Of a stretch of 64,000 bases of DNA, positions 35,992 through 57,110 are shown one piece after another. The position numbers and the translations under genes were made by a program. This stretch comes from Candidatus Aenigmatarchaeota archaeon (GTDB taxonomy: Archaea; Aenigmatarchaeota; Aenigmatarchaeia; CG10238-14; SpSt-28). The notes beneath the pieces are model-generated. The model did no database searches, was not told where the DNA came from, and saw nothing but the letters and a program-made list of their open reading frames with translations. How positions within the stretch are numbered: position 1 is the stretch's first letter; each line of letters begins with the position of its first letter. The stretch spans positions 1,877 through 65,876 of the forward strand of contig JAWBMD010000001.1 of the NCBI GenBank assembly GCA_039000985.1. Direction: 5' to 3'.

Positions 35992-36755
35992 TATTTGCTA
36001 AAAAATTTTTTGATTTTTGTAAATAAACTTTCTTTTTCTTCAAATTTTTCTCCAGCTATAAAGGAAGCTATTTTTATTATTTCTATTGCAGCTTTAGAAT
36101 TTTTATTTAACAAAATTAATGGTACTCTAGCATTTATGCTTTTTTCAACATTTTCGTCTTCAGGAATTTTACCTATTATGTTTAATCCGGTTAAAGCTCT
36201 TATTTCTTCTTCCAGCATTTCATATTTTTTTCTTTTTACTCTGTTCAGAACTAAACCTAATGGTATTACAGAATGAGCATCTAAAATTTTCAAGCATTTT
36301 ACTATATCAACTATTGAGATGAAATTTGGGTTTGATATAAAAATAGCTTCCTCGCTACATAAAATGCTAAGCATACCTTCTCTACCAAATCCTGGAGCAG
36401 AGTCAATAATTACAAAATCTCTTGTTGAAAAATTTTCTTTTATTTTTTCTTTCAATCCATCAAAATTTACATTAACCAAATCTGATATATCCAAAGATGA
36501 TGGAATGAATTCTATACCATTACCATAGCTATATATCACATTGCTTATTGGGACTTCATTTCTAAGAAAATTGTTTAATGTATATGCATAGTTATATTTT
36601 CCAAGATATAGTGAAAGATGGGATGTTGTTATGTTTAAATCAATCAAAACTACTCTTTTTTTAAAAAATAATGATAAAGCTATTGCAAGATTTGCTGTGA
36701 AAACAGTTTTTCCAACACCACCTTTGCCAGATAATACAGATATTATCCTCACCAT
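35991..36755 (-). CDS. MinD/ParA-family P-loop ATPase
   Basis: Deviant Walker A LSGKGGVGKT. 254 aa. Confidence 0.75.
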   Translation of the reverse strand: MVRIISVLSGKGGVGKTVFTANLAIALSLFFKKRVVLIDLNITTSHLSLYLGKYNYAYTLNNFLRNEVPISNVIYSYGNGIEFIPSSLDISDLVNVNFDGLKEKIKENFSTRDFVIIDSAPGFGREGMLSILCSEEAIFISNPNFISIVDIVKCLKILDAHSVIPLGLVLNRVKRKKYEMLEEEIRALTGLNIIGKIPEDENVEKSINARVPLILLNKNSKAAIEIIKIASFIAGEKFEEKESLFTKIKKFFSK

Positions 36756-37092: not shown

Positions 37093-37440
37093 ATGGAGAA
37101 ATTTAAACAAGTTATTATTGTAAGAAAAGATTTAAAAACGAGTAAAGGAAAACTAGCAGTTCAATGCTGTCATGCTTGTATAGGTGCTTTAAAGCAAGTG
37201 GAAGAAAAAGTTATCGAGGAATGGGAAAAAGAAGGAGCAAAAAAAGTTATTTTAAAAGTTAAGGATTTAAATGAATTAGAAAAAATAGAAAAAGAGCTAA
37301 AGAAAAACAAAATAAATTATTTTTTGGTTATAGATGCCGGTAAAACTCAGCTAAAGAAAGGAACAATAACTTGCATAGGTATTGGTCCAATAGAAAGTAA
37401 AAAAATAGATAAAATAACAGGAAAACTAAAGCTACTTTGA
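37093..37440 (+). CDS. pth2: Peptidyl-tRNA hydrolase, archaeal type (Pth2)
   Basis: PTH2 family pattern (KQVIIVRKDL...GKLAVQCCHA...TCIGIGP). Confidence 0.85.
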   Translation: MEKFKQVIIVRKDLKTSKGKLAVQCCHACIGALKQVEEKVIEEWEKEGAKKVILKVKDLNELEKIEKELKKNKINYFLVIDAGKTQLKKGTITCIGIGPIESKKIDKITGKLKLL

Positions 37441-39387
37441 ATTTATATCAATTCTTGTTGATATTGTGATATCAGCTTTACACGCTATTGGTTTTGGAAT
37501 ATCTGTGCCAGTTGGAGATATTTGAATACATTTATTATATTTGTATTTTTCACATTCCTTTGTAATAATATTAGTCTTTATACATGGACAGTTTTCGTCT
37601 ATTGTTTTTTCATCTACGTTAACTATTTCACCACTTGGAAGTTTACATGTTATTTTGCTTATGAAATTTTCATCTTTATCTTCTATACTTATATTAAGAA
37701 AAATATTTTCTCTTGTTATTATTTCTTTTCTCAAATAAACACTACAACCATCTTTGCATTTTTCTTCATAATAGTTTGCTATAAATGGAAAATTTTCTTT
37801 GTAGGAAATTACATTTTCACATTTATTATTGCTAAAGCAATCTTCATTGTTGTTTATACAAGTTTGTTCTTTTTTGCTACAAATAGAAAAGTACCAATTT
37901 TCTGGTATTACTGCACAATCATAATGAATCGTATCTACATATATACTATCTCCATCATTCTCTAAAACTACATCATATATTGCATTAACTAAAAATGTTA
38001 ATGTTTTTTGTTCTTTTTCTCCTACATCAACATTAGAAATATCTAAAACACAATCTATAAAATAGTCTTTACCCCTTTCTAAATATATTTTTCGAGGTAA
38101 TTCTCCACCTCCAGAAAGATCGAAAGGTTTGCAATTAAATATTCTCAATTTTTCGCTTCCTATTCCAAGTGTTCTTAAAGATACTTTTGATATGTAAATA
38201 TCTCCCCTACCTTTATTAGCAAAACCTATTGTTAGTGGAACTATTTCATCTATTCCTTTTATTAAAGTTTTCTCTATTGCCTTTACACCAATTGCAAGAG
38301 GACCTGGAGTGCTAGTTGATTCAAATGCAGTTGGTCTTTGTTTAAAATCTTTTCCTATTATATTTACAGAGACAAATCCAGTTGTGTTATAGGAATATCT
38401 AAATTTATATTTCCACTTAAGAGGGCTTTTACATGTAGAGTCAAATCTAAATATATATTCTTTTGGTAGTTGGTCTATTTCTAAATTTTCAAGCTTACAT
38501 TCATACAATCTACCCTCTTCCTCTTCTTTATATTCACATTTTGTTCCAAATGCTGTTGTAAATAGAAAATCATTTGAGTGTGCTGATAAATAAACATTTT
38601 TTGCTGGAGGGACTATATCACAAATTTTTTGACCAGCTACTTTTATACAATATTCTCTATCACCACCAGCTTTTATATTTATTGATATAGAACCAATAGA
38701 ATAGGGAATTATATTTTGTCTCTGAACTTTAGTTTCTAATAAAAAACAATCTACACAGCCCAGTTTTATCGTTTCTACTTTTCTACAAACTACTTCTCTA
38801 CAATATTTTCCTATACCGCCAGCACTATACCAAACATCAGGACTTATAAAATTTGTTATTATGCAGGAAGCCATGCAAAAATTATCACTTATTTTTCCAA
38901 TACCGGGTATTCTCATTTTTAATATGTCTGTTATGTTCTGAAAAAGGAGAAAAGCAGCAATAATGATTAGAATTATAAATATAAAAGAAAATATAGGACG
39001 TGAACTAGGAAATTTATTATACAAAAACATAAAGGCTATAATAATTCCAATTAAAGCAATTATTATAAGGACCAGTGTCCAAATATTAAAAAACAAACCT
39101 CTTAGGAATGCGATAATGGAAATTAATATGATTAAAACTATTGGCAAAGCTAATATTTTGGAAGATGTTAATGCTGGTTGTTTTGATAAAAACTTTTCTT
39201 TAAATTCTGAAAATTCCTTAGGTTTTTCTTCAGCCATGCTTTTAGCCTTATTGAAATGATCTTCACATAAGAATCCAAAAGGAGTAGGTTTACCGGGTTT
39301 TTTACAAGCAGGCCAAACACATTTTACACTAATCTTTTCTTCAATTTTCTTTCCCCACTCTTTAAGCTTTTTACCTATTTTTACCAT
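37432..39387 (-). CDS. Large cysteine-rich membrane protein with N-terminal zinc-ribbon-like cytoplasmic segment and big extracellular domain; function unknown
   Basis: CVWPACKK...CEDH at the N-terminus, then 3-4 TM helices, then a ~480-aa Cys-rich region. Confidence 0.4.
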   Translation of the reverse strand: MVKIGKKLKEWGKKIEEKISVKCVWPACKKPGKPTPFGFLCEDHFNKAKSMAEEKPKEFSEFKEKFLSKQPALTSSKILALPIVLIILISIIAFLRGLFFNIWTLVLIIIALIGIIIAFMFLYNKFPSSRPIFSFIFIILIIIAAFLLFQNITDILKMRIPGIGKISDNFCMASCIITNFISPDVWYSAGGIGKYCREVVCRKVETIKLGCVDCFLLETKVQRQNIIPYSIGSISINIKAGGDREYCIKVAGQKICDIVPPAKNVYLSAHSNDFLFTTAFGTKCEYKEEEEGRLYECKLENLEIDQLPKEYIFRFDSTCKSPLKWKYKFRYSYNTTGFVSVNIIGKDFKQRPTAFESTSTPGPLAIGVKAIEKTLIKGIDEIVPLTIGFANKGRGDIYISKVSLRTLGIGSEKLRIFNCKPFDLSGGGELPRKIYLERGKDYFIDCVLDISNVDVGEKEQKTLTFLVNAIYDVVLENDGDSIYVDTIHYDCAVIPENWYFSICSKKEQTCINNNEDCFSNNKCENVISYKENFPFIANYYEEKCKDGCSVYLRKEIITRENIFLNISIEDKDENFISKITCKLPSGEIVNVDEKTIDENCPCIKTNIITKECEKYKYNKCIQISPTGTDIPKPIACKADITISTRIDINSK

Positions 39388-40001: not shown

Positions 40002-40736
40002 ATGAGAAAAATAGCTATTACATCGCTAAAAAAAGGAATAGGTAGAACATCGTTTAGCTTTTCTTTAGCTTTTGCATTTAAAGAAATGGGAAAAAGCACA
40101 ATAGCTATATTAGATAGTCCTATTATCGCTTCTAATAAATATGTTGATGATTTTTTTAAAGAGCAAAGAAATATTAGCAATTATATAACATTTTTTGAAG
40201 GTTTATCTGTTTTACTAAGGAAAGGAGATGTTAATTTAGATAGGGAAATTGTTAATATTTTATTACAAAAAATTGGTGATGAAAAAAGATTTGATATACT
40301 TGTTTGGGATATAGATTATGATATTTTATCTAATTGTTCTGATTTTTTTGAGGAAATAATTTTTGTTTCATTACCATATAAATCAGATTTAATTGAGTTA
40401 AAAGAAACTGCTAAGAATATAAAAAGAAAAGTTTATGTTGTTATAAATTTTTTACCTACAAGCATGGAAATAGATGATAAAAGCATATCTAATTTTTTAG
40501 GTTTAGAGCTATTGGGAAAAATTAGTTATGATGAAAGTGTTCAAGAAAGTATTTATTATAAATTGCCAGTTACTTTTTATAAAAGATATTCTTTATCATC
40601 AAAACAAATTTTTGATATTGCTTCAAAACTTTTGGTAACAGAGTATAATGAGAAATTCTTTTATAGGATATTAAGATTTTTCGATAGCTTGAAAAAATCA
40701 AAAATAAAATTAACAATAGAAGAGCTTTCTTTTTAA
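40002..40736 (+). CDS. ParA/MinD-like protein with degenerate Walker A (probable pseudo-ATPase)
   Basis: IAITSLKKGIGRTSFS aligns to IAITSGKGGVGKTTTS. The signature Lys is kept, but the P-loop Lys is Arg and two Gly are lost. Confidence 0.45.
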   Translation: MRKIAITSLKKGIGRTSFSFSLAFAFKEMGKSTIAILDSPIIASNKYVDDFFKEQRNISNYITFFEGLSVLLRKGDVNLDREIVNILLQKIGDEKRFDILVWDIDYDILSNCSDFFEEIIFVSLPYKSDLIELKETAKNIKRKVYVVINFLPTSMEIDDKSISNFLGLELLGKISYDESVQESIYYKLPVTFYKRYSLSSKQIFDIASKLLVTEYNEKFFYRILRFFDSLKKSKIKLTIEELSF

Positions 40737-43684
40737 ACAAATTTGTAAAAAACTTTATTTCCTTCTATTTCCATTTCATAGCATTCAGTTAAATTATCTT
40801 CAAATAAAATATTTCCAGCATTAGTTTCTTTTTTTATTTTTTCCATATTAGCTTTTATAATATCTAACCAAAAAGATTTATTCTCAAAACAAATGTTTAC
40901 TTTATCAATAACTTTTAATCCAACTCTTTTTCTTCTTTCTTGAATATTTCTTATCAATTCTCTAATAAATGCTTCTTTTTTACATTCTTCTTCAATTATT
41001 TTCGGTATAAATAATACAAATTTCTTTTGTTTTTCTTCAATATAGTTTTCATTTTCAAACTTTCTTGTAATAACTATTTCTTTAATATTACCCATGTTTT
41101 TTATTATATTTTCATATTTTTTGAAAAATTGCTCAATTTTTTTGCTTTTTGTTAGAACTATTAATTCTTTTACCGGCCATCTAAGTTTTATTTTTGCTCT
41201 TTCTCTTAATGAAAGTATTAGATTAATTATTTCTTTTACAGCTTCTATATTCTTTTCCAAATTTTTATTTATTAGTTTTTTATCAGCTTTCGGATAACTT
41301 TCTTCAAATATTGATTCTTTTTTATCTAAAGCAATTTCTTGATATATTTTTTCTGTTATGAACGGACAAATTGGTGCTAAAAGCTTAATTAAGTTAATTA
41401 TAACATAATACATTGTAGAAAGTGCAGCATTTTTTGTTTTTTCTTCACTATAAATCCACGCCCTATCTCTAATTTTTTTAATGTAAAATCTACTAAAATC
41501 GTTAACTGCAAAGTTTAAAAATTCCTTCCCAGCTTTGTGAAACTCAAAATTTTTCATGTATTTATTGAAGTTGTTTATTAATGTATTTATTTTTGATAAA
41601 ATCCAATAATCTTCTATTTCTAAATTTTCCAATGAAAATTTCCAATTTTCTGTTTTGTAAGTTTTGAAAAATTCAATGCAATTTAAAAATATATTAAATT
41701 GTTTTTTTAACTCTTCGATTGTTTTAAAGCTAAAGTTTTGTTGTTCCCAAGGAGCATTTCCATAGCAATAGTAAAGTCTTAATAAATCAGCTCCAACTTT
41801 TTCTAAAGCATCTTTTCCATCAATAACATTTCCTTTGCTTTTACTCATTTTTTCTCCAAATTCATCTAAAACCCAGCCATTCATACAAACGGTTTTAAAA
41901 GGTCTTTTATTTATAAAGGCAATAGAAACAAACATCAATGTATAAAACCAACCTCTTATTTGATCTTGGCTTTCATCTATTAGGTCAGCAATTTTTGTTT
42001 TTTTAGTTAAGAATGGATATCCAAGTGAAGCGAATGTTGCTGCTCCACTATCATACCAAACATCAAATATATCTGGAATTCTTTTTGCATTATTTCCACA
42101 TTTATCGCATTTCAAAATAATTTTATCAACAAAATGTTTATGTAAATCTAAATTACTTTCATCAATTTTTTCTATTGATTTTTCCATTAATTCTTTTATA
42201 CTTCCAGCAACAATTTTTTCTCCACATTTTTCGCATATCCAAATTGGTATTGGTATTCCCCAAAATCTTTGTCTAGATATGCACCAATCTATAGCATTTC
42301 TTACCCAGTTTTTAAAACTTTCTTTTGCAAATCTTGGTAACCATCTAACTTTATCGCTTTCTAAAAGCATTTTTTCTTTTATTTCATCTACAGAAATAAA
42401 CCATTGTTTTGTTAATCTGAATATTAAAGGAGATTTACATCTCCAACACAAAGGATAGGAATGAACTACATAATCAGAATAAAGTAGCAAATTATTACTT
42501 TTAAGTTTTTCTATTATTAGTTTGTCAGCATCCTTAACAAAAATATCTTTAAATTCTCCAGCATCTTCATCAAATTTACCATCGTTTTTTACTGGGGAAA
42601 TAGCTGGTAGATTATAATGTTGAGCAATATAATAATCTTCTTGTCCATGACCAGGAGCTACATGTACACAACCAGAACCTTCTTCAACATTTACAAAATC
42701 AAAAAATTCACTTTTCATTTCGGCATATTTCTCTAGAATACCATGTTTATATGATTTTGATTTTAATACTGGGATAGACATTATGATTTTTCTAAAGTTT
42801 ATTTTTTGTTGAGCAGGACAATTAATTACAGGGAGGTATTCTAAACCATCTAAGTTTTTACCTTCAAAAATATCAACGATTTTATATTGCTCTGTTTTCA
42901 GCAATTCTTTAAATACATATTCTACTCTTTTTTCAGCTAATATAATTTTTTCATCATTATACTCAACTTTAACATATTTTTCATTTGGATGAACAGCTAT
43001 TGCGACATTACTTATTAATGTCCAGGGGGTTGTTGTAAATACTAAAATAAATTCTTTTTCTTTGTTTTTTATAGGAAATTTAACAAATATATATGGATCT
43101 GAAACATCAGCATAACTATCTGTAACTTCATAACCAGATAAAGCTGTTTCGCATCTTGGGCACCAAAAATAAGCTCTTTCGCCAAAATATACTAAACCTT
43201 TTTCGAAAATTTTTTTGAAAATAAACCAGCATGATTGAATATAATTATTATCTAAAGTCAAATAAGGTTTAAAATATCCACGCCAAGCACCAAGTTGTTT
43301 ATATAGTTCCAACCATATATTTTCATTTCCTCTAGCTTTTTGCTTGCACAATTCTATAAATTTTTCTATACCAAGCTCCTCTATATCTTTTTTGCTTTTT
43401 AATCCAAGCTCCCTTTCAACTATGTTTTCTATGGGTAAGCCATGGCAATCAAATCCAGGTTGAAATATTACATTGAATCCTTTCATTAAATAAAACTTAC
43501 TCCATATATCCTTCAAAGTTGTTGTTTTCACATTTCCAACATGAGGACTAGCATTAACATATGGTGGTCCATCCAATAAGAAAAATGTTTTTTTACCTTT
43601 TTTAAATTTTGTAAGTTTTTCTATAATTCTATTTTTTTCCCAATATTCTTTTACCTCTGCTTCTACTTTTTTTAGGTCTAACAT
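40733..43684 (-). CDS. ileS: Isoleucyl-tRNA synthetase
   Basis: HIGH (PHVGN), KMSKS and editing domain. 983 aa. Confidence 0.9.
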   Translation of the reverse strand: MLDLKKVEAEVKEYWEKNRIIEKLTKFKKGKKTFFLLDGPPYVNASPHVGNVKTTTLKDIWSKFYLMKGFNVIFQPGFDCHGLPIENIVERELGLKSKKDIEELGIEKFIELCKQKARGNENIWLELYKQLGAWRGYFKPYLTLDNNYIQSCWFIFKKIFEKGLVYFGERAYFWCPRCETALSGYEVTDSYADVSDPYIFVKFPIKNKEKEFILVFTTTPWTLISNVAIAVHPNEKYVKVEYNDEKIILAEKRVEYVFKELLKTEQYKIVDIFEGKNLDGLEYLPVINCPAQQKINFRKIIMSIPVLKSKSYKHGILEKYAEMKSEFFDFVNVEEGSGCVHVAPGHGQEDYYIAQHYNLPAISPVKNDGKFDEDAGEFKDIFVKDADKLIIEKLKSNNLLLYSDYVVHSYPLCWRCKSPLIFRLTKQWFISVDEIKEKMLLESDKVRWLPRFAKESFKNWVRNAIDWCISRQRFWGIPIPIWICEKCGEKIVAGSIKELMEKSIEKIDESNLDLHKHFVDKIILKCDKCGNNAKRIPDIFDVWYDSGAATFASLGYPFLTKKTKIADLIDESQDQIRGWFYTLMFVSIAFINKRPFKTVCMNGWVLDEFGEKMSKSKGNVIDGKDALEKVGADLLRLYYCYGNAPWEQQNFSFKTIEELKKQFNIFLNCIEFFKTYKTENWKFSLENLEIEDYWILSKINTLINNFNKYMKNFEFHKAGKEFLNFAVNDFSRFYIKKIRDRAWIYSEEKTKNAALSTMYYVIINLIKLLAPICPFITEKIYQEIALDKKESIFEESYPKADKKLINKNLEKNIEAVKEIINLILSLRERAKIKLRWPVKELIVLTKSKKIEQFFKKYENIIKNMGNIKEIVITRKFENENYIEEKQKKFVLFIPKIIEEECKKEAFIRELIRNIQERRKRVGLKVIDKVNICFENKSFWLDIIKANMEKIKKETNAGNILFEDNLTECYEMEIEGNKVFYKFV

Positions 43685-44222
43685 TTTTTCTAGTTGAATA
43701 AATACTACTTACTATAAATTTTCTTATATTTATTTCAGATTCTAAAAGCAATGTATAAATTGCTCCGTAAAATGATAAAAAAGCAATTATGGTTATAAAA
43801 ATAATAATTATTCCACTCAATGCAGGACTTATGGATTCTAAAAAATCTTTAAACAGCCAAAAAAGAAAAACTGAAAATATAATAAAAATTATTACTTTTA
43901 TAGAGCGTCTCAATCTATTTATCGAGGAAGTTTTCTTTATATTTAAAAAATATGAAGAAATACCAGAAACAGCATCACTTATTTCATTCATTTCCCTTAT
44001 TGTTAAAACTAAAATTGATGCAGAAATAACTGTAGCTATAAAGCTTATTATGTTAGATACTTGTATGTTTGCTAATGGTGGCAATTCTCTAGAAAGTGGA
44101 ATAAAAACAAATTTTGAGAATAAAAGAACTATACTAAAAAATATGCATAACAATATGAATTTTGGTAACGATCTTCTTAGCTTGATTATAGAGATGAAAT
44201 AAAGCCTTTCTAAGTTTTTCAT
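43629..44222 (-). CDS. Membrane protein, unknown
   Basis: Several TM helices. Overlaps the ileS start, so the true extent is uncertain. Confidence 0.3.
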   Translation of the reverse strand: MKNLERLYFISIIKLRRSLPKFILLCIFFSIVLLFSKFVFIPLSRELPPLANIQVSNIISFIATVISASILVLTIREMNEISDAVSGISSYFLNIKKTSSINRLRRSIKVIIFIIFSVFLFWLFKDFLESISPALSGIIIIFITIIAFLSFYGAIYTLLLESEINIRKFIVSSIYSTRKNVRPKKSRSRGKRILGKK

Positions 44223-44249
44223 AAAATTAATAAAAACTAAATAAAATTA

Positions 44250-44918
44250 ATGCCTATATTTGGTAAAAAAGAAGTAAAGAAGGGGAAGGGTATTATACCA
44301 ACGGATAGAGTTAAGGACCTATCCTCTAAAGGATTTTCTGAGCCAGAAATAATAGATATTTTAAGAAGGGAGGGATATAGCCCAGAAGAAATAGATAAAG
44401 CTTTGGGAGAGGCAATAAAGTCAGCTATAGAAAAAGAAGAAAAGAGAGAAGAAGTAAAGGAACCATTGTCTCAACTCACTCCATTACCAACTTCTCCAGT
44501 TCCTCCAGCACCAGCTCCGTTAAAGGAACTCGAGTCTCTTTTTGGAGCAAAGGGAGAGGTTACTGCATTAGAGGTTCCTGAAACGTCTCTTCCTTCTCCA
44601 GCAAGAGCTTTAACAGAAGAATATATTGAATATATTATTGATCAAAAGCTAATAGAGGTTTATCAAAGGTTTGAAGATATTTATTATAGAATTGAGGAAA
44701 TAGAAAAAGCAATGAAAGAAATGAATGAAAGTATATCAGAAATAGCTAGAAAGAAAGTATTAGAAAGTGAAGAATTAACTAGAAGATTTGAAAACTTTTC
44801 AGAAAGTATGCAAACTATAACTGGAAGAGTAGGTAGCTTAGAAAAAGCATTTAAAGAAACTTTACCATCATTAGTTGAAGCTATAAGAAATTTGAACGAA
44901 TCACTGAGAAAGAAATAA
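44250..44918 (+). CDS. Hypothetical coiled-coil protein with Pro-rich linker
   Basis: N-terminal helical motif SEPEIIDILRREGYSPEEIDKAL, PLPTSPVPPAPAP linker, C-terminal coiled coil. Abuts the aIF2 gamma start. Confidence 0.35.
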   Translation: MPIFGKKEVKKGKGIIPTDRVKDLSSKGFSEPEIIDILRREGYSPEEIDKALGEAIKSAIEKEEKREEVKEPLSQLTPLPTSPVPPAPAPLKELESLFGAKGEVTALEVPETSLPSPARALTEEYIEYIIDQKLIEVYQRFEDIYYRIEEIEKAMKEMNESISEIARKKVLESEELTRRFENFSESMQTITGRVGSLEKAFKETLPSLVEAIRNLNESLRKK

Positions 44919-46145
44919 ATGGGAATAGATCCCAGATTAATATCTAGAACAAACATTGGTGTTTTTGGTCATGTTGCTCATGGAAAAAGTACTTTGGTTA
45001 ATGCTATTACTGGTATTTCTACTTTAAGGTATTCTGAAGAAATGGAAAGGGGAATAACAATAAAGCTTGGTTATGCAGATGCTAGAATTTATAAGTGTAA
45101 AAGTTGTGAAAAATATTCAACAAGCGAAAAATGTCCATATTGTTTTTCTGAAACAGAATTGATAAGAACTGTTAGTTTTGTAGATTCACCAGGTCATGAA
45201 AGCTTGATGTCGGTAGCTATAACTGGAGCATCTATAATAAATGGTGCTATTTTAGTAATAGCTGCTAATGAAAAATGTCCTAGACCGCAAACAAGAGAAC
45301 ATTTAATAGCTTTGCAAGCAGCCAATATAGAAAAAGTAATTGTTGTTCAAAACAAAATAGATTGTGTTACTAAAGAAAGAGCATTAGAAAATTATAAAGA
45401 AATAAAAGATTTTCTTAAAGGAACAATTTATGAAAATTCTCCAATAATACCAATTTCTGCACAAGAAAAAATAAACATAGATAAAGTTTTGGAGCTTATA
45501 GTTAAAGAAATTCAAGAGTGTGAAGATAGTAAAACCAATGATTTCAAAATGTATGTTGTAAGAAGTTTTGATATAAATAAGCCAGGTTCAATAGCGGAAA
45601 ATATAAAAGGTGGAGTTTTAGGTGGTTGTATAAATAGAGGTATAATAAAAAAATTTGATGAAATAAAGATTTTGCCAGGTATAAAAATTGAAGGGAAATA
45701 TAAAGCTTTAAAAACTAGGGTTGAAAACATAAAAAAATCTAATATTAGTTTAGATGAAGCTGGTGCCGGTGGTTTAGTAGGAATATTAACAACTTTAGAT
45801 CCATCTTTAACTAAATCTGATAATTTGGCTGGGAGTATTGTTATACCTTCTAATAAAAATGTTGAAATGAAGGAAGAAGCTATTATTAAATATAAATTAT
45901 TTGAAAGAGTAATGGGAATTGTTGATGAAAGAATTGTTGAACCAATTAAAAATGGAGAAAATTTACTTTTAAATATTGGGGTTATAAAAAACATTGGAAA
46001 AGTTATTAATTGTGATAAAGAAATTTTAAAAGTTAAGCTTTCTATACCAACATTTTATGAAGAGGATGATAAAGTTACAATTTTAAGATTAATAGAAGGA
46101 AAATGGAGGCTTATTGGTTATGGTTCTTTAGTAGAAGCTAAATAG
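44919..46145 (+). CDS. eif2g: Translation initiation factor aIF2 gamma subunit
   Basis: GTPase G1 GHVAHGKST, G2-G4, and zinc knuckle CKSCEKYSTSEKCPYC. Confidence 0.9.
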   Translation: MGIDPRLISRTNIGVFGHVAHGKSTLVNAITGISTLRYSEEMERGITIKLGYADARIYKCKSCEKYSTSEKCPYCFSETELIRTVSFVDSPGHESLMSVAITGASIINGAILVIAANEKCPRPQTREHLIALQAANIEKVIVVQNKIDCVTKERALENYKEIKDFLKGTIYENSPIIPISAQEKINIDKVLELIVKEIQECEDSKTNDFKMYVVRSFDINKPGSIAENIKGGVLGGCINRGIIKKFDEIKILPGIKIEGKYKALKTRVENIKKSNISLDEAGAGGLVGILTTLDPSLTKSDNLAGSIVIPSNKNVEMKEEAIIKYKLFERVMGIVDERIVEPIKNGENLLLNIGVIKNIGKVINCDKEILKVKLSIPTFYEEDDKVTILRLIEGKWRLIGYGSLVEAK

Positions 46146-46180
46146 CTTGATTTTTATTTAACTAAATTTAAATAAATTTT

Positions 46181-46531
46181 ATGAAAGGAGTTAGTGAAGT
46201 AGTAGCTATGGTTATGATGTTAGTAATAACTTTAGCATTAGCAGGAACTGCCTATGTTTTTATAAGTCGTACATTTACAGTACAAACACAAGGTATACAA
46301 TTAGACGAGGCGTCTTGTTTTGATGGTAGTGTTACTCTGATATACCGAAATATTGGAGATCAAACATTAACAGTCAATGTCTTCAAGGGCAACACACCGA
46401 TTGATACAAGGTTGGTATTTCCAGGTAGAACAAACATAACAACAGACAGTTGTGGTACAGGAAATATATGTAGATATAGGATAGTACCGAGTGTAGGTAA
46501 AACAGTTACAACAACGGTTCAATGCATATAG
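46181..46531 (+). CDS. Archaeal type IV pilin-like protein (class III signal peptide, Pilin_N/DUF1628-like)
   Basis: MKGVSEVVAMVMMLVITLALAGTAYVFI matches the KGxSPVIxxVLLIAITV pilin N-terminal consensus. Confidence 0.6.
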   Translation: MKGVSEVVAMVMMLVITLALAGTAYVFISRTFTVQTQGIQLDEASCFDGSVTLIYRNIGDQTLTVNVFKGNTPIDTRLVFPGRTNITTDSCGTGNICRYRIVPSVGKTVTTTVQCI

Positions 46532-46869
46532 AGCTTTTGCTTTTATTAGTAATATTAACTTCTTTACTTTTTCTATTTCTTTATAATATAAGTAGTTCTG
46601 GATTAGAAACTGTAAAAATTAATGATATAAACGGAAGTTTTTTAGGGAAAAAGATTGTTGCAGAAGGTAAAGTAAAAAATATAAGAAATTATAAAGGTCA
46701 CTATTTTTTAGAGTTTTACAATAGCAATATAACTGTTGTTTTTTTCAAAAATAATGTTAATGAGAAAGTAGTTAGTTTAACAGCTAATAAAGAAGTTAAA
46801 GTAATTGGTATTGTTAGCATGTATAAAAATAATTTAGAAATAATAGGTGAAGATATAATTTATGTTTAA
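46522..46869 (+). CDS. Membrane-anchored OB-fold (tRNA_anti-like/BOF-type) protein
   Basis: N-terminal TM, then GKKIVAEGKVKNI...HYFLEF...VIGIVSMYKNNLEI OB-fold pattern. Confidence 0.5.
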   Translation: MHIELLLLLVILTSLLFLFLYNISSSGLETVKINDINGSFLGKKIVAEGKVKNIRNYKGHYFLEFYNSNITVVFFKNNVNEKVVSLTANKEVKVIGIVSMYKNNLEIIGEDIIYV

Positions 46870-48076
46870 TTTTTTTCTTTCACTAGTTTTTGGAATAATA
46901 GTTGGTTGTGTTGCTGGTTTGCTTCCCGGCTTGCATACAAACAATTTATTACCAATAGTTTTTTCACTTTCTTTACTTGGTGGAGAAAATGGTGTAATAT
47001 TTATTTCTTCAATGGTTGCTTCTCAATTAATTTTTAACTTTTTAATTGCTACTTTTTTTGGTGCTGCAGACGATGAAGCAAATTCTTTAGCTTCTTTACC
47101 TTCACATAGATTATTGATAAAGGGAGAGGGAATGAAATCTGTTGTTAGCTTGATTTATGGTTCTTTATTAGGTTTTTTGTTTTCAATAGTTTTGCTTGTA
47201 ATTTTTTTCAATTATATTAAGCCAATTTATACTTATTCAAGAAGCATAATAGTTTTTGTAATAATATTTGTTGTTAGCTATTTAATTTTACTAGAAAGAG
47301 AAATTGGTAAAATATTTAAATCATTTTTAATTTTCATTATCTCTGGAATTTTTGGAATTTTGGTATTAAATGGATTGAACATTCCAGAGGAAAGCAAACT
47401 ATTACCATGTTTTACAGGTTTATTTGGTATAAGTTCTTTATTAACAAGTATTTATACAAAAACAAAGCTACAAAAGCAAAAAACTGATTTTAATTTAGGT
47501 TTAAATAAGATAAACATATTAAAAGCATCTTTTGCTGGTAGTATAGCTGGGTTTTTAGTAGGTTTATTACCAGGAATTGGGGTAGCACAAGGAATTATTT
47601 TAGTATCAAGCTTTTTTAAAATTTCTAATCCTGTAGGGTTTTTATTAGTACAGGGTTCTGTTGCTTCTAGCGATAATATATTTTCAACAGCTGCAGTTTA
47701 CTTAATAGGTAATCCTAGAAGTGGAGCAAGTGTTTATTTAGAAAGAATTGTTGATAAGTTAGAAATAAAGCATCTTTTTTTAGTTTTATTTTCTTTTGGT
47801 ATTTCATTAGCTTTATCTTCATTTTTCGTTTTTAAACTATCACCTTTAGTTTTTAAGTTAATAGAAAAAATTGATTATAAAACAGTTAATATTTCAGTAA
47901 TATCTTTTTTAGTTTTCATAGTTTTTATTTTTTCTGGTTTTATTGGTTTATATTTACTTTTCATTGCTACATTAATTGGTTTTTTAAATATTAAGTTTAA
48001 TGTAAATAGAAGCTTTTCAATGGGATTTTTAATTTTACCAACTATTTTATTTTTCTTTAACTACTTTTACATATAA
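46862..48076 (+). CDS. TctA-family (DUF112) polytopic membrane protein
   Basis: Repeated GxxxGLLPGxG motifs (GCVAGLLPGLHTNNL; GSIAGFLVGLLPGIGVAQGIIL). About 12 TM helices. Confidence 0.55.
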   Translation: MFNFFLSLVFGIIVGCVAGLLPGLHTNNLLPIVFSLSLLGGENGVIFISSMVASQLIFNFLIATFFGAADDEANSLASLPSHRLLIKGEGMKSVVSLIYGSLLGFLFSIVLLVIFFNYIKPIYTYSRSIIVFVIIFVVSYLILLEREIGKIFKSFLIFIISGIFGILVLNGLNIPEESKLLPCFTGLFGISSLLTSIYTKTKLQKQKTDFNLGLNKINILKASFAGSIAGFLVGLLPGIGVAQGIILVSSFFKISNPVGFLLVQGSVASSDNIFSTAAVYLIGNPRSGASVYLERIVDKLEIKHLFLVLFSFGISLALSSFFVFKLSPLVFKLIEKIDYKTVNISVISFLVFIVFIFSGFIGLYLLFIATLIGFLNIKFNVNRSFSMGFLILPTILFFFNYFYI

Positions 48077-48079
48077 ATT

Positions 48080-49483
48080 ATGGGAAGTCAGGAATTTTTT
48101 ATAATTATCGGAGTTATAGTTGTTAGCTTATTATTTTTTTCAATAATTTATTTCAATATAGGAGAAAGAGCTAGAGAAAGTATAAAAAATCAAGTTAAAG
48201 CAGAAGCAAGTGAGTTAACTTCTTTAGTTTACAGAGTTTTTAACGATCCAGCAAAATATTTAAAATATTGTGTACCTGTAAATTTAGCGAATATAACAAT
48301 AGAAAAAGGAATATTTAAATATGAGAGACAAGGATTTAGTTTTATCAATGCATTACCACCAAATATTTCCGATGCAACTCTTTCAGATATTACTGATTTT
48401 TGTATTGTTAAAACCGATAGCATGATAAAAATTTTAGGTACTGCTCCTACTTGTGAAATAGATAGAATTTGTTCAATTGATGAATGTAAAGAAAACTGTA
48501 TTGATTGTTATGGTCCAGCAAATATTTGTATTGGAGATAAGTATTGTAATAAAGAGATTGGTGAAAATTGTGGAAAATCACCAAATGATTGTAGTTGTAA
48601 TAATTTCGGTTCTGATTACACATGTTGTCCAGAGGATCCCTCTTCAAACGAATATGGTTGTATTGATAAAACCAGACAAAATAAGAAAAGAGGTGAGGAA
48701 TGTTTTTGTAGCAATCAATGTGAAGCAGGTTTAGAATGCAATCCCGTCGCACCTTCTTTTACAAAATACAAAAAAGCTTGTTGTGATCCAGGAAAGGGTT
48801 GGAATGGAACTGATTGCACATCTATTGAGAAAAAATTGAAAGTACTATTTGTGCCTGTAAATTGGGATAGTGATTTCTCATCATTTGATAGCGTTGCAAA
48901 AAATCATTTCGATTTTTTAATAAAAAATATTCCGTTATCAGCTTGTCCAGAAAAGGCAGAAGCAAAATTTTTACATAATAACTGCAAATTTACTATGACG
49001 TGTGATTGTTCCGATCTTTTGAAAATCCAACAATGTGCAAGAGCTTCGGGAGAAACTTATGATTATATAATGGGTTTAGAAGATAGTAATGTATGCGATA
49101 GTGTGGCTGGATTTTCTTGTGGATTTGGTGTTGTTTTTGGAGAATCTCCTTATGTTTTAGTAACTACACACGAATTAGGTCATGAATGGGGGTTAAATGA
49201 TGAATATATAGATGCATGTAGATGTGGATTCGGTCTTGTTAATCCAAATGCTAATTGTCTGAGGTCTCGGCTTCATGGAGATGATGCTGTTCCACCCTAT
49301 ACTCGAGATTATTGTAGTGAAAAGGGAACAAAATGTCCATCAGGATATTCTATAACATGTATGGGAAATCAAAACAAATTGGGTGGAAGAGATATTATGA
49401 GTTTTGCTAATGCGCCAGGTCCTCGTGCTTTTGCAGAAGAAAGCTGGAATTATTTATTAACGGTTCCAATTATAAATTGTTAA
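48080..49483 (+). CDS. Membrane-anchored cysteine-rich zinc metalloprotease (HExxH zincin)
   Basis: N-terminal TM. About 40 Cys in EGF-like spacing. HELGHEWGLNDEY zincin motif. Confidence 0.55.
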   Translation: MGSQEFFIIIGVIVVSLLFFSIIYFNIGERARESIKNQVKAEASELTSLVYRVFNDPAKYLKYCVPVNLANITIEKGIFKYERQGFSFINALPPNISDATLSDITDFCIVKTDSMIKILGTAPTCEIDRICSIDECKENCIDCYGPANICIGDKYCNKEIGENCGKSPNDCSCNNFGSDYTCCPEDPSSNEYGCIDKTRQNKKRGEECFCSNQCEAGLECNPVAPSFTKYKKACCDPGKGWNGTDCTSIEKKLKVLFVPVNWDSDFSSFDSVAKNHFDFLIKNIPLSACPEKAEAKFLHNNCKFTMTCDCSDLLKIQQCARASGETYDYIMGLEDSNVCDSVAGFSCGFGVVFGESPYVLVTTHELGHEWGLNDEYIDACRCGFGLVNPNANCLRSRLHGDDAVPPYTRDYCSEKGTKCPSGYSITCMGNQNKLGGRDIMSFANAPGPRAFAEESWNYLLTVPIINC

Positions 49484-49484
49484 A

Positions 49485-50387
49485 ATGGTTAGCAAAAAAA
49501 TTCTACACTCATTTTTGATTATTTTCTCATTTTTAATTATTGTACAATTAACTTATGCTGAAACAATTTTATCTTTACAGTTTAATGTATCTAAAGACGA
49601 TACTGTAATTCTAGAAGAGATAAAGGTAATGGAGGGAAGATCTACACAATATTTTGTTCCAGGTGATTATAAAATTCAGCTATTAGATAGTGGTAAAGAG
49701 GTTATATTTGAAAAATCTATTAATATAGTATTTTTTATACTTTCGGAACCACCAATACCAGTAGATAGTATGATAGTTAGCTTAAGAGTAACTTATAATC
49801 CAGATATGAGATATGTTAGGTTACTTCATAATGAAAAAGAAATATTTTTCAGTGAAATAATTGTATGTAACAATAATAAAGTATGTGAAGCTTCGGAGAG
49901 TTATTTAAGTTGTCCTTCTGATTGTCCTTTGAATTTACCAGATGGTATATGTATTAAGGATAAAGATGGAATTTGTGATCCAGACTGTGCTCCAAATGTG
50001 GACCCAGATTGTATAGAGAAAGTTTCTATTTGCGGTAACAAGGTTTGTGAAAGTAATGAAACATATCAAAATTGTTGTATAGATTGTGGTTGTCCAAAAG
50101 GACTAATCTGTAAAAACAATTTTTGTATAGAGGATAGATGTGGTAATAAAATTTGTGAAAGTTTTTCTCCATATAACGAAAATTATGTGAATTGTCCGAA
50201 GGATTGCCCTTCCGGAAGTAAAGATAATTATTGTGATGCCATAGCAGATGGAAAATGTGACCCAGATTGTGAAAAAAATAAAGATATAGATTGTATTAAA
50301 CCATCAACAACATGGATTTATTTTTTGATTATTGGTGTAATTGTTGTTTTGGTAATATTTATATTTTTGTTAACAAAAAGGGAATAA
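49485..50387 (+). CDS. Secreted Cys-repeat protein with C-terminal TM anchor
   Basis: Signal peptide. Three modules of CxNK[VI]CE(x)nY..CP.DC. C-terminal TM WIYFLIIGVIVVLVIFIFLL plus a basic tail. Confidence 0.45.
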   Translation: MVSKKILHSFLIIFSFLIIVQLTYAETILSLQFNVSKDDTVILEEIKVMEGRSTQYFVPGDYKIQLLDSGKEVIFEKSINIVFFILSEPPIPVDSMIVSLRVTYNPDMRYVRLLHNEKEIFFSEIIVCNNNKVCEASESYLSCPSDCPLNLPDGICIKDKDGICDPDCAPNVDPDCIEKVSICGNKVCESNETYQNCCIDCGCPKGLICKNNFCIEDRCGNKICESFSPYNENYVNCPKDCPSGSKDNYCDAIADGKCDPDCEKNKDIDCIKPSTTWIYFLIIGVIVVLVIFIFLLTKRE

Positions 50388-50423
50388 CCTAATTTATTTT
50401 TTAAATATCTTAAAAATACTTTA

Positions 50424-51122
50424 ATGAAGATAAAAAAGTTACATTCAGATAATGAAAAAATGGTGTTTTTAGTAGATGGAATAGATTATTCTTTTGCAAA
50501 TGGTTTAAGGAGGATTTTTATGAACATGGTACCAACTTTGGCTATAGAATATGTTGATTTTATAGAGAATGACTCTGTTATTAACGATGAGGTGCTTGCT
50601 CATAGGTTAGGGTTAATTCCATTAACTTTTGAGAAAAATCTTTTGGTAATGAGAGAAGATTGTAGTTGTAAAGGTAAAGGATGTAGCAATTGCATGGTTG
50701 AGTTAAGAATAAAAAAGGAAGGTCCTTGTACTGTTTATTCGAGAGATTTAATATCTTCAGAATCATCTGTAAAACCATTGTATGATAATATAATTATATG
50801 TAGATTAGCTTCTGGTATGAAGCTTGAGCTAATTGCATATGCTTTTTTGGGAATTGGAGAAGAAAGTCCAAAATGGCAAGCATCTTTAGCTACATATGTT
50901 AATGTTGTTAAAGAACAAAAAGGCAAAACAAAGAAATGCTGGACACAAGATTATGGTATTTATTGTGTTGAATGTTTCGAAGATTTAAAAGATATTGAGG
51001 TAGAAAAGGATAAGTTTTTGTTTTATGTTGAAAGTGTTTCTGGTTTAACTACTGAAAGAGTTGTTGAAGAAGGTTTAGAGTTTGCCAAAAAATATTTAGG
51101 AAAAGTTAAAAAAGTTTTATGA
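50424..51122 (+). CDS. rpoD: DNA-directed RNA polymerase subunit D (Rpo3)
   Basis: ANGLRR motif and Fe-S cysteine cluster CSCKGKGCSNC. Confidence 0.8.
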   Translation: MKIKKLHSDNEKMVFLVDGIDYSFANGLRRIFMNMVPTLAIEYVDFIENDSVINDEVLAHRLGLIPLTFEKNLLVMREDCSCKGKGCSNCMVELRIKKEGPCTVYSRDLISSESSVKPLYDNIIICRLASGMKLELIAYAFLGIGEESPKWQASLATYVNVVKEQKGKTKKCWTQDYGIYCVECFEDLKDIEVEKDKFLFYVESVSGLTTERVVEEGLEFAKKYLGKVKKVL

Positions 51123-51610
51123 AAAAAATATTAGCAATTTCTGATTCACATGTAAATAATTTATCTCAGCTTCCTGTTGAGCTAGTTCAAATTTTTAAAG
51201 ATTTTGATTTTATTGTTCATTGTGGAGATTTTACTGGCATAAAAATTGTTCAAGAATTAAAAGAGTTTAAAAATTTTTTTGGTGTTGTTGGAAATGTAGA
51301 TGATTTTGAAATATCTAAAATTTTAGATAAAAAAGTTGTTTTTGATATAAATGGCTTTAAAATAGGAATTATACATCCTTATGAAGGTGGACCACCAATA
51401 AATATTAAAACAAGGATTTTAAAAAGTTTTGGTAATGAAAAACTTGATTTAATTATATTTGGACATACTCATTTTGCAGAAATATCAGAATTCAATTCAG
51501 TTAAATTTGTTAATCCCGGTAGTTGTACAGGAAAATTACCAGCTTTGTTTAAAAGTTATGCTATAATAGAAATAGATAATGAAATTAAAGCTAGAATTGT
51601 AAGGTATTGA
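51119..51610 (+). CDS. Calcineurin-like metallophosphoesterase (YfcE/MJ0936 family)
   Basis: ISDSH, HCGDF, GNVD, GHTH motifs. Confidence 0.75.
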   Translation: MKKILAISDSHVNNLSQLPVELVQIFKDFDFIVHCGDFTGIKIVQELKEFKNFFGVVGNVDDFEISKILDKKVVFDINGFKIGIIHPYEGGPPINIKTRILKSFGNEKLDLIIFGHTHFAEISEFNSVKFVNPGSCTGKLPALFKSYAIIEIDNEIKARIVRY

Positions 51611-54212
51611 AAATAACTTTTTTTGATAAAGTGTTGTTATAAGAGAAATATAAATCTCCATCACAATAAACACATCTGCAAGATAATGGTATTGTTTGAT
51701 ATTCTTTCTCACATTTTTTACAAACTATTTTATCAAAGCTTTCTAAAAATTCCTTAACTTCTTTTTTATTATTAATTATTTTTGCTATTTCAAGTTTTGT
51801 TTGTTTACCAATTTCTTTTATATCACTAACATTTGCTCCTATTGCTTCCATTATTCTTTCTATTGGTGGAAATAGTTGGCTTTTTATGTAATAATCATAA
51901 TCTATTTCCAATCCTTCTCTTTTAACAAAATTAGGATCTTCAGCTCTTTTTGATAAAATTTCACCACCTTTTACTATAACAAAGCTTATTCTATCACCAA
52001 CTCCAGGTATTCTTTTTTCTCCCCTCTCTTTCATTTTTTTAATTAGTTCTATATGTGGCTGAATTCCTTTATAATTTGTTTTAGAAATACCTTTTGTTAT
52101 TAATAGTTTTTCTAAAGGTATTTTACCTTCTCTAAGATTTTTAACAATTTCTTTAAATCTGTTAACAGCTTTTTCAACATTCTTTTCTTTTAATATAGTG
52201 CTAACAACTTCTTCTAAAGTATCTGTAACTAAATCACACCAATCTCTTCTAACTGTTTCTATTCCTTTCATAACAATTTTTTCATTACCATTTTCATCAA
52301 CAGAAAGAGCAGCATATCTTTTTTTAGTTAAAATTATAATGCTTTTGAAAATACTCTCTATTTTCATTTTCAAATTCTCATATTTTATATTTACAATATT
52401 CTCCAATTCTTTAGCTTTTTCAAAAGCTAACTTTATATCATCTGTATCAAGTTTAACCATTATAGAATCTGTATCTCCATAAATAACTTTATAATTTGTT
52501 TCTTTCTCGATAGTTTCCTTCATTTCTGTTATTAATTTTCTACCGTTCGCTGTTATTGAGTTAGCTATTTCCAATATATACAATCTACCAGAAACAAAAC
52601 CCGTATAACCATAAAATGCATTTGCTATTCTTTTAAAAGCCTCTTGCATAGCATCCAGTTTTTCTCTCATAATTTCGTCTTTTTCATTTTTTAGCGAGCT
52701 CTTTATTTTATTTCTTTCTTCAATCATCCTTTTTAAAATTTTTGGATATATACCCTCTCTAACATTTTTAGAAACAAATTTTGGAATTCCATTTTCTATA
52801 ATAAGTGTTGTTGGACAAATGTTAAAACTTATTATTATGTTTGGGTACATGCTTGCAAAATCTAAGTAAACTATGCATTTATCATGAAAACCTATTTGTG
52901 GTTGCAACACTAATCCACCTTCCAATCCCTTAGCTTCTTTTTCCTTTTCTCTTTCCAATTTAATTTTTTCTGATGGTTTGTTTGGCATTACAAAATCACG
53001 TTTATTAAATTCTTTAAGCAAAAGGAATTCTATTTTTGAGGCTTCTCCACCATCAAGTATATCTTGTAACAATAAACCACTAACTTTGCTTAGAGCAATA
53101 TATTTATCAAGCATTTTATATTTCAAAAACAGTTTAAAGGCAAGTTCTGAATCTTTTCTAGCATATTCTATTACTTTTTTTGGATTTTCATACCAGTATT
53201 TTTCTATTTCGCTATGAGATATATCTATTTTGCTTTCATTTAACAAAAAGTTTGCCACACTGTTTAAGTCAAATCTTTTCAATTTTTTGAAAAAACCAAC
53301 TTTTACTAATTCTTTTATAATTTTATAGCTATCTACAATAAATCTACCAACTATATGATTTTTATATTTGTTTTCTCTTAGTTTTTTTGATGAAGCTGAT
53401 TTTTCTTCTGCTCTTCCCATTATCGGCTTTATATTTAGTTTTTTCATTCTGTTTATTAGATATGGTAAATCGAAATCATTTATGTTATACCCAACTATAA
53501 AATCTGGATCAAAATCTTTAACTATTTCTAAAAACTTCTTTAGCATTTCTTTTTCATCTTCAAAACAAATTACATCAACTTCACTATTTTTAATAATTTT
53601 TGAAGTCAAAATTAGACTATTTTTTTCGTTGTAGTGTGGATAAAAGAAAAGGGAAATAATTATTATTTCCCCTTCTGCAGTTTCTACATTTGGACTACCT
53701 ATACATTCTATATCTATTGTCAAGAATTTAAAATTAGCATTTTTTTCTTCATTCAAGTTCTCAAAGCTTTCCGCTTCATATGCTTCATTTACATATAAAG
53801 AGTTCGAATTTATTCTTTTACCTTTAATTTTTATCCAATTCATTCCATTAATGTTGAAATCTGCTGCAAATCTATATTTAAACAATATATCAGCTTCAAA
53901 TGTTTCCACCTTTATTTTATTTCTAATATTCGGTACATCTGCCGGATTTGATAAATAAACTTTCATAAGCTTTGTTTTATTTTCATTAAATCCTATTGGT
54001 AAAAATTTTTCTACAATTTCAGATTTTATAAAATGAGGTTCCTTTAAAATTTCTTCGTTTAAAGAATTTATGTAAAAATATGGATAAAATTTTTTGTATA
54101 TTACACAAACTGTTTTACCATCTTCTTTTTTTCCAAATATTCTTATTATTGGTACTTTTTCGCTTTTAGAATAAACATAATCTATGTCAAATACTTGAAA
54201 GGATACTTCCAC
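51591..54212 (-). CDS. polB: DNA polymerase, family B
   Basis: Exo I DIE, YGDTDS Pol C motif, KxxxNSxYG motif. C-terminal Cys4 zinc finger. 873 aa with no intein. Confidence 0.9.
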   Translation of the reverse strand: MEVSFQVFDIDYVYSKSEKVPIIRIFGKKEDGKTVCVIYKKFYPYFYINSLNEEILKEPHFIKSEIVEKFLPIGFNENKTKLMKVYLSNPADVPNIRNKIKVETFEADILFKYRFAADFNINGMNWIKIKGKRINSNSLYVNEAYEAESFENLNEEKNANFKFLTIDIECIGSPNVETAEGEIIIISLFFYPHYNEKNSLILTSKIIKNSEVDVICFEDEKEMLKKFLEIVKDFDPDFIVGYNINDFDLPYLINRMKKLNIKPIMGRAEEKSASSKKLRENKYKNHIVGRFIVDSYKIIKELVKVGFFKKLKRFDLNSVANFLLNESKIDISHSEIEKYWYENPKKVIEYARKDSELAFKLFLKYKMLDKYIALSKVSGLLLQDILDGGEASKIEFLLLKEFNKRDFVMPNKPSEKIKLEREKEKEAKGLEGGLVLQPQIGFHDKCIVYLDFASMYPNIIISFNICPTTLIIENGIPKFVSKNVREGIYPKILKRMIEERNKIKSSLKNEKDEIMREKLDAMQEAFKRIANAFYGYTGFVSGRLYILEIANSITANGRKLITEMKETIEKETNYKVIYGDTDSIMVKLDTDDIKLAFEKAKELENIVNIKYENLKMKIESIFKSIIILTKKRYAALSVDENGNEKIVMKGIETVRRDWCDLVTDTLEEVVSTILKEKNVEKAVNRFKEIVKNLREGKIPLEKLLITKGISKTNYKGIQPHIELIKKMKERGEKRIPGVGDRISFVIVKGGEILSKRAEDPNFVKREGLEIDYDYYIKSQLFPPIERIMEAIGANVSDIKEIGKQTKLEIAKIINNKKEVKEFLESFDKIVCKKCEKEYQTIPLSCRCVYCDGDLYFSYNNTLSKKVIFNTLQF

Positions 54213-56723: not shown

Positions 56724-57110
56724 TTAAGGTAATTTAACAAAAACTACTAGCTTTTTAATTTCAGGATTATTATAATCACCACCTATTAAAAATGGAATTG
56801 CTAAAACATTTTTAGACAATATATCTTTTTGATAACTTTCTGTAGCATTAAATATATCAACTTCTATTTCAAAATTTCCTGGTAAAATTTCTAGGAGGAG
56901 ATTTTCTATCATAGTTTTATTATTTTCCATTATATATTTTCTAAGGTTTTTTGTTTTAATAAGGCTATTAACGCTTTCATAAACTAATAATTTCATTTTT
57001 ATGTCTATTTTTTCTTGTTCTAATCTAGTTAGTGAAGTTGAAATAAGTATTATGAAAAGAATTGCTAAAAAAGCTATTATTACTTCCAAAATTGCACTTA
57101 AAGATTTCAT
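56724..57110 (-). CDS. Pilin-like protein with class III signal peptide
   Basis: MKSLSAILEVIIAFLAILFIIL N-terminus. Confidence 0.45.
   Translation of the reverse strand: MKSLSAILEVIIAFLAILFIILISTSLTRLEQEKIDIKMKLLVYESVNSLIKTKNLRKYIMENNKTMIENLLLEILPGNFEIEVDIFNATESYQKDILSKNVLAIPFLIGGDYNNPEIKKLVVFVKLP

Follow-up and report, generated by a model that had tools for sequence, protein, structure and literature searches.

To our knowledge archaea lack ComEC, and the only candidates for a DNA transporter of their own are an OB-fold gene and a TctA-like gene that emerged from one transposon screen published in 2023. That screen, carried out in Methanococcus maripaludis, struck MMJJ_13020, which encodes an OB-fold protein with a single transmembrane (TM) helix and lies adjacent to MMJJ_13030, whose TctA-like product has 11 TM helices (Fonseca et al. 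2023, PMC10133366). In that study, in-frame deletion of either gene abolishes natural transformation and complementation restores it, a TctA homolog is also essential for transformation in Methanoculleus thermophilus, type IV-like pili are likewise required, and the authors propose the TctA-like protein as the DNA transporter of archaea (PMC10133366). We found no later mechanistic follow-up to this work in the literature. TctA proteins of arCOG04469 have elsewhere been regarded as putative carboxylate transporters that for the most part stand alone (Makarova et al. 2015, PMC5898192). Here we analyse a stretch of 64,000 nucleotides (nt) from a Candidatus Aenigmatarchaeota archaeon (assembly GCA_039000985.1, contig JAWBMD010000001.1, positions 1,877 to 65,876), referred to as the window, in which an OB-fold gene and a TctA-family gene are neighbours in a run of five open reading frames (ORFs), g1 to g5:

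46181-46531, + strand: g1, ORF of 116 amino acids (aa), archaeal type IV pilin
46522-46869, + strand: g2, ORF of 115 aa, membrane-anchored OB-fold protein
46862-48076, + strand: g3, ORF of 404 aa, TctA-family polytopic permease
48080-49483, + strand: g4, ORF of 467 aa, Cys-rich, with a pilin-like N-terminal module and a metzincin-type domain
49485-50387, + strand: g5, ORF of 300 aa, partner surface protein of g4

The five genes are a lineage-specific juxtaposition of two modules, A (g1-g3) and B (g4-g5). On balance, though with little more confidence than doubt, we propose that these are two adjoining envelope modules of a compact DPANN genome, A taking its place in an archaeal natural-transformation or DNA-uptake set and B being a separate protease cassette. 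Module A most likely belongs to pilus-dependent DNA uptake. Like MMJJ_13020 and MMJJ_13030, g2 and g3 are adjacent genes of the same two Pfam families in the same order; the first encodes a single-TM OB protein, the second a TctA-like protein that has neither TctB nor TctC beside it. Both M. maripaludis and the genome of the window also have type IV pilus genes. The window pair differs in that its host is a DPANN archaeon (Aenigmatarchaeota) and in that a pilin gene is joined to the same gene run. The likeness is one of families, architecture and order. What is new compared with the methanogen pair is the DPANN setting, the direct junction with a pilin gene and the evidence of linkage to pilus genes.

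The OB-TctA pair is a widely conserved two-gene module. The TctA loci used for comparison (n=83, of which 80 were fetched by homology and three by exact look-ups) were searched for with a 12-sequence alignment, a 34-sequence alignment being too diverse, and their OB genes were located by an iterated g2 profile. In 54 of the 83 loci, TctA is immediately preceded on its own strand by an OB gene that overlaps it or is at most 60 nt away, and four further loci have an OB gene within 1.4 kb; the pair occurs in Aenigmatarchaeota, Hydrothermarchaeota/Pyrohabitans, Methanosarcinales and Woese-/Nanoarchaeia. Natural OB-TctA fusions, sought as a sign of physical interaction, were not found. An apparent long OB-TctA form in L034 proved to be an over-extended ORF. 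Three contigs with the archaeal pair (L005, L032 and L080) are filed under bacterial metagenome-assembled genomes (Thermodesulfobacteriota, 'bacterium' and Dehalococcoidales), which is probably mis-binning.

OB-TctA stands beside type IV pilus genes in three separate lineages. The Hydrothermarchaeota loci L050, L074 and L083 have the co-directional order Peptidase_A24+Arc_PepC, four class-III-signal pilins, DUF2101, OB and TctA. Five Methanobacterium loci have a T2SSE ATPase gene and a T2SSF platform gene about 1.1 kb downstream of TctA, in the same orientation. In the window and in a relative, L084, whose TctA is 66% identical, a pilin directly precedes OB-TctA; this order is common to the window and that one close relative. 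As far as gene order can tell, the linkage fits the methanogen transformation genetics, and we did not find it stated in the literature on the pair, as far as the text of those sources was available to us. The conservation of OB-TctA and its adjacency to pilus genes constitute evidence independent of the 2023 screen and strengthen the case for pilus-dependent uptake. The DUF2101 membrane protein (E 7e-32), at about 4870-5660 in L050, L074 and L083, is conserved between the pilins and OB-TctA and may be another part of the same system.

The product of g2 matches PF01336 (OB fold) over residues 48-112 with 30.4 bits (cutoff 27, E 3.8e-7) and falls just under the cutoff for PF13742 (E 8e-6). A single hydrophobic N-terminal TM helix (residues ~3-22) is followed by the OB domain, which is of the nucleic-acid type (XseA/YhcR/AspRS-anticodon class), and a profile search with g2 returned 205 homologs whose source names are 'OB-fold nucleic acid binding', 'exodeoxyribonuclease VII large subunit' or 'YhcR'. 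The OB partners share one architecture, in which a short N-terminal stretch leads into a single TM helix and then into an OB domain about 90-105 residues long, and in their alignment G49, G96, F75 and Y101 are invariant or nearly so. Since a Lys or Arg precedes the TM helix in most OB homologs, the positive-inside rule predicts an N-in topology for g2, with the OB domain facing outward. Charge was considered as an argument that the OB domain binds DNA and was set aside as general evidence, the isoelectric point (pI) of the ectodomain ranging from 4 to 10 across the family.

The product of g3 matches TctA (PF01970) over residues 6-386 of 404 with 141.4 bits (cutoff 28.9, E 4e-41). It is a DUF112 protein of the arCOG04469 type with the internal repeat motifs GLLPGLHTNN and GLLPGIGVAQ; full-length homologs recovered by homology search are 30-54% identical, and the Methanobacterium TctA homologs show 33-34% identity over the full length. 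The g3 product is 100% identical to an NCBI protein, and no sequence relative of it was found in the PDB. Its AlphaFold2 (AF2) model (predicted local distance difference test score, pLDDT, 88; predicted template modelling score 0.87) is made up of helices throughout, and short ones follow the duplicated GLLPG motifs. The protein is a full-length member of the TctA family, as is the permease of the bacterial TctABC systems (TTT family), but it differs from these in its surroundings: TctB and TctC have no Pfam match on any gene within 10 kb either side of g3, and its partner is a membrane-anchored OB-fold protein. The substrate of g3 is probably not a tricarboxylate.

The pilin g1 matches TIGR02537 (archaellin/type IV pilin N-terminal domain) with 27.2 bits (cutoff 20, E 2e-6) and Pilin_N with E 2e-4 at 22.4 bits, below the gathering score of 25.2. 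It has the class III signal MKG/VSEVVAMVMML... and 4 Cys, and an ortholog 55% identical occupies the same place upstream of OB-TctA in L084. Assembly genes for a type IV filament lie in the same window:

31961-34991, + strand: type IV filament assembly core, 11-14 kb upstream of the cluster
31961-33139, + strand: T2SSE ATPase (PF00437, E 6e-36)
33127-33996, + strand: T2SSF platform protein (PF00482, E 1e-17)
33993-34991, + strand: T2SSF platform protein, a separate gene (PF00482, E 2e-14)

This core would be the machinery that g1, and possibly g4, needs. No A24 prepilin peptidase was identified among the window proteins scanned. More small ORFs with pilin-type N-termini are present at 9141-9506 (+), 63060-63461 (-), 56724-57110 (-) and 6008-6379 (+), the N-termini including MKGQFFILTAVF..., MVKAISPLVATVLLIG... 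and MKSLSAILEVII...; of the four, only 63060-63461 matches Pilin_N, weakly (E 2e-3). The window also holds MinD/ParA-like ATPases at 35991-36755 (-) and 40002-40736 (+) and, at 37432-39387 (-), a 651-aa protein without a Pfam match. A MinD-like ATPase and an adjacent uncharacterised gene were also struck in the M. maripaludis transformation screen (PMC10133366), and the window genes are likened to them by description only.

We propose that the pilus built by the T2SSE/T2SSF core 11-14 kb upstream would capture extracellular DNA, which the membrane-tethered OB domain, predicted to lie at the outer face, would bind and deliver to the TctA-like protein, either as DNA or in the form of a processed strand or oligonucleotide, for membrane crossing. 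The imported DNA could serve as a nucleotide source as well as genetic material. ComEC itself carries an N-terminal OB fold, and g1-g3 share with bacterial ComEC/ComEA and the competence pilus the logic of a type IV pilus, a membrane-tethered putative DNA-binding module and a polytopic membrane protein. There is, however, no homology between the two sets, and the resemblance is one of analogy: ComEC-type domains (DUF4131, Competence, metallo-beta-lactamase) gave no Pfam match at E<=1 for g2 or g3. OB-TctA is a candidate route of nucleotide acquisition in DPANN, and g2 and g3 are small, tractable proteins that can be nominated for biochemistry.

Several observations weigh against DNA uptake. 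The fold of the g3 model resembles the OPT and DASS carriers and not a known polymer channel, the TctA family otherwise comprises small-molecule carriers, and we know of no biochemical demonstration anywhere of TctA-like proteins moving DNA. The OB ectodomains are basic (pI 9-10) in Aenigmatarchaeota and acidic (pI 4-5) in the Methanosarcinales- and Woese-type homologs, a spread that is odd for a universal DNA binder. In 25 of the 83 TctA loci there is no OB gene within 6 kb, and most Aenigmatarchaeota pairs are flanked by genes assigned as IleRS and AlaRS, not by pilus genes; these are the commonest neighbours of OB-TctA overall (IleRS upstream, AlaRS downstream, assigned via the L001 annotation and cluster lengths). 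No Methanococcus sequences are named among the matches of the g2 and g3 homology searches, and the kinship of g2-g3 to the Methanococcus pair is argued from architecture only. For module B, the pilin-like call on g4, discussed below, is inferred and comes without support from a hidden Markov model (HMM).

In an alternative reading, OB-TctA would be a secondary transporter whose substrate is some small solute (carboxylate, other metabolite, oligopeptide or chelate), with the OB protein as an accessory or capture subunit replacing TctB and TctC and the requirement for transformation being indirect. We consider this unlikely, and retain it mainly because g3 looks carrier-like, unlike a known polymer channel. 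Besides the likeness to OPT and DASS, the strong PF01970 match, the prediction of arCOG04469 proteins as carboxylate transporters (PMC5898192) and the carrier-like combination of duplicated G-L-L-P-G motifs with polar intramembrane residues speak for it, as do the acidic OB ectodomains of several lineages and the retention of OB-TctA beside housekeeping genes in most genomes. Against it, the OB domain is of the nucleic-acid-binding class, TctB and TctC were not found within 10 kb either side, adjacency to type IV pilus genes recurs in three lineages, and both genes are specifically needed for transformation, with complementation, in the methanogen work (PMC10133366). That same adjacency, to pilins, prepilin peptidase and the T2SSE/T2SSF genes themselves, would also suit an accessory role in making or operating the type IV pilus (anchoring, modification or energising), one that affects transformation through the pili and translocates no DNA. 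In its favour, the available text of the 2023 report contains no statement on the piliation of the OB and TctA mutants (PMC10133366), yet we regard it as quite improbable: pilus assembly is not known to employ either a nucleic-acid-type OB fold or a carrier-type permease, and in many genomes the pair is far from pilus genes. Pilus-dependent uptake of DNA is the reading that we prefer for module A.

The initial annotation, made from the sequence alone, had instead read g1-g5 as one dedicated apparatus for attachment, processing or uptake. Its five + strand ORFs, their coordinates and the junction spacings (in order, a 10-nt overlap, an 8-nt overlap, a 3-nt gap and a 1-nt gap) are exactly right, and its pilin, OB-anchor and TctA-type calls are borne out by TIGR02537, by PF01336 with the N-terminal helix and by PF01970. 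In favour of a single apparatus, g1-g5 are co-directional with no more than 10 nt between them, all five products are envelope proteins, pilin-type N-termini occur in both g1 and g4, and the five-gene arrangement is identical across several near-identical assemblies. Nevertheless we hold it to be very unlikely. Equally tight spacing is the norm of this genome: in a crude gene call of the whole window, 27 of 44 same-strand neighbouring pairs are at most 10 nt apart (median 2 nt), with a coding share of about 88% at about 27% GC. Because such packing is the genomic background, it says little about function or an operon, and the single transcript that the initial annotation deduced from it does not follow. 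The co-directional run is in fact longer than g1-g5 (43789-51610), with eIF2-gamma ending 35 nt upstream of g1 and rpoD starting 36 nt downstream of g5, and other housekeeping genes in it abut or overlap each other. A TATA-like motif stands ahead of g1 (46167) and another ahead of rpoD (50400), and g5 is followed by a T6 run; the frequencies of such TATA-like and oligo-T motifs are 1.3 and 4 per kb, with 18 T6 runs within the g1-g5 cluster, and scans for sigma-70 promoters and intrinsic terminators gave shuffle level only. Since these motifs are too frequent in DNA of 27% GC, transcript ends cannot be read from the sequence.

Comparison with other genomes points the same way. The 83 other loci contain no homolog of g4 or g5 at a distance of 6 kb or less from TctA, a relative with 54% TctA identity has a gene for Fe superoxide dismutase directly after TctA, in the place of the zincin, and the g4-g5 pair occurs in other contexts in five genomes. 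The initial annotation had tied its undescribed unitary system to conserved synteny, and by that measure the system does not hold together, only OB-TctA being widely conserved (54/83). What survives of it is the surface location, in that all five products are envelope proteins, though not of one apparatus, and the suggestion of uptake with nucleic-acid binding by the OB fold, which through the methanogen genetics fits g1-g3 and not the whole run of five. No paralogs of g1-g5 were found elsewhere in the window by tblastn.

Module B probably combines an extracellular or surface protease and a partner dedicated to it, for which the roles of chaperone, inhibitor and anchor are candidates. From the model of g4, an adamalysin-type metzincin would be displayed via a pilin-like helix and sheet on a disulfide-rich stalk, accompanied by a membrane-anchored partner. 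The AF2 model of g4 (pLDDT 90) comprises an N-terminal helix and five-stranded sheet, a Cys-rich region and an alpha/beta domain:

48080-48439, + strand: g4 residues 1-120, pilin-like module (AF2: 53-residue helix 3-55, five strands within 61-119)
48440-48829, + strand: g4 residues 121-250, Cys-rich linker or stalk, CxxDxxCxxxECKxxCxDCxGPxxxCxGDxxCN...
48830-49483, + strand: g4 residues 251-467, metzincin-type zinc metalloprotease domain, with HELGHEWGLND at nt 49169-49201

Zincin profiles match g4 only weakly. The C-terminal domain nevertheless has the features by which metzincins are recognised, namely the catalytic fold, the HExxHxxGxx(H/D) motif (HELGH at residues 364-368) and a Met-turn, for which the conserved GGRDIMS is the candidate. 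The Cys-rich HExxH metalloprotease of the initial annotation is thus upheld, with 36 Cys in place of the ~40 that it gave. Residues 121-250 have nearly invariant Cys columns in the alignment and, in the model, little regular secondary structure at high pLDDT. Compared with adamalysin/ADAM, fragilysin and archaemetzincin, g4 differs by an Asp at the third ligand position (HELGHEWGLND, as in snapalysin); its sequence identity to these is 12-19%, and it has extra disulfides and no recognised prodomain. A Foldseek search of g4 against the PDB returned metzincins only, the pilin-like domain having no structural match there. The model, the genomic context and the canonical class III motifs with which distant g4 homologs start (MKG/LTILSE, MNRMKG/LTIISE and MKG/ISTEF) suggest that the N-terminal half is pilin-like, and we leave this as something that we infer because no pilin HMM matched the N-termini of the g4 homologs or their neighbours.

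There are about 25 relatives of g4, mostly in Aenigmatarchaeota, and its two halves recur apart: residues 1-250 are found fused to papain C1, gingipain C25 or other HExxH domains, and residues 250-467 behind PKD, beta-helix or other N-terminal regions. The pilin-like half can accordingly be seen as a swappable carrier on which papain C1, gingipain C25 or M28 aminopeptidase replaces the metzincin (P0129, P0132, P0137, P0138; L093 6008-7450). Archaeal exoproteins with class III (pilin-like) signals exist, for example the sugar-binding proteins of the Sulfolobus bindosome, and g4 and its neighbours elsewhere likewise put pilin-type N-termini before enzymatic or binding domains, in arrays. They differ from the bindosome type in that the cargo of g4 is a Cys-rich metzincin (papain, gingipain or M28 in relatives) paired with a g5-like partner; cleavage by a prepilin peptidase is putative.

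The partner protein g5 has 24 Cys, and its signal peptide, C-terminal TM helix and Cys modules are as the initial annotation had seen them, with three CxNKxCE...C..DC repeats at residues 128, 183 and 219. It gave no Pfam or NCBIfam match. Its N-terminal domain is conserved, beta-rich and about 110-170 aa long, with 1437 cluster representatives at E<=1e-3 (50% clustering), and the names of cluster members are uninformative. This domain (P0266-P0415) may make up a protein by itself or form part of giant proteins (800-1500 aa) that also contain CARDB, beta-helix or VWA domains; a bacterial-type outer-membrane beta-barrel domain (OMP_b-brl) is joined to it in one member.

Five more loci show the g4-g5 pairing, each time apart from TctA. 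In L089, L090 and L091 a g5 homolog lies directly downstream of a g4 homolog (g4 47-53% identical), with no TctA neighbour and with small proteins bearing pilin-type N-termini nearby. L092 and L093 have g4-like genes in long co-directional arrays of class-III-signal proteins, some with VWA, M28 or zincin-like domains, and since g5-like genes follow several of the array members, the pairing is a repeated cassette. The Acinetobacter metzincin CpaA with its adjacent membrane-bound chaperone CpaB (PDB 6o38) can be likened to g4-g5, as a lead and not as a finding. Module B defines a recurring unannotated cassette of a pilin-like hydrolase and its partner, which may matter for host interaction.

A bolder proposal is that OB-TctA does in archaea what ComEC does in bacteria, as a DNA or oligonucleotide importer coupled to the pilus that would mainly scavenge host or environmental nucleic acid in genome-reduced DPANN, and that the metzincin cassette has been recruited to the same pilus machinery, for instance to breach the host S-layer. 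Such cooperation between modules A and B, with DNA as the putative substrate, is speculative, and we think the proposal as a whole improbable.

Two further features flank the cluster. Downstream of TctA and close to it, the opposite strand carries a family-B DNA polymerase gene (51591-54212, -), and a cluster of ~882-aa proteins occupies the same post-TctA position in 11 other loci (including L003 and L042); the member in L003 (Hodarchaeales) has DNA_pol_B Pfam matches, and the proximity to TctA is conserved. Upstream, a 197-aa ORF at 43629-44222 (-) with a weak DUF2975 match overlaps a 137-aa ORF at 43789-44202 (+); the latter is the public gene call, and L084 likewise has a + strand gene there.

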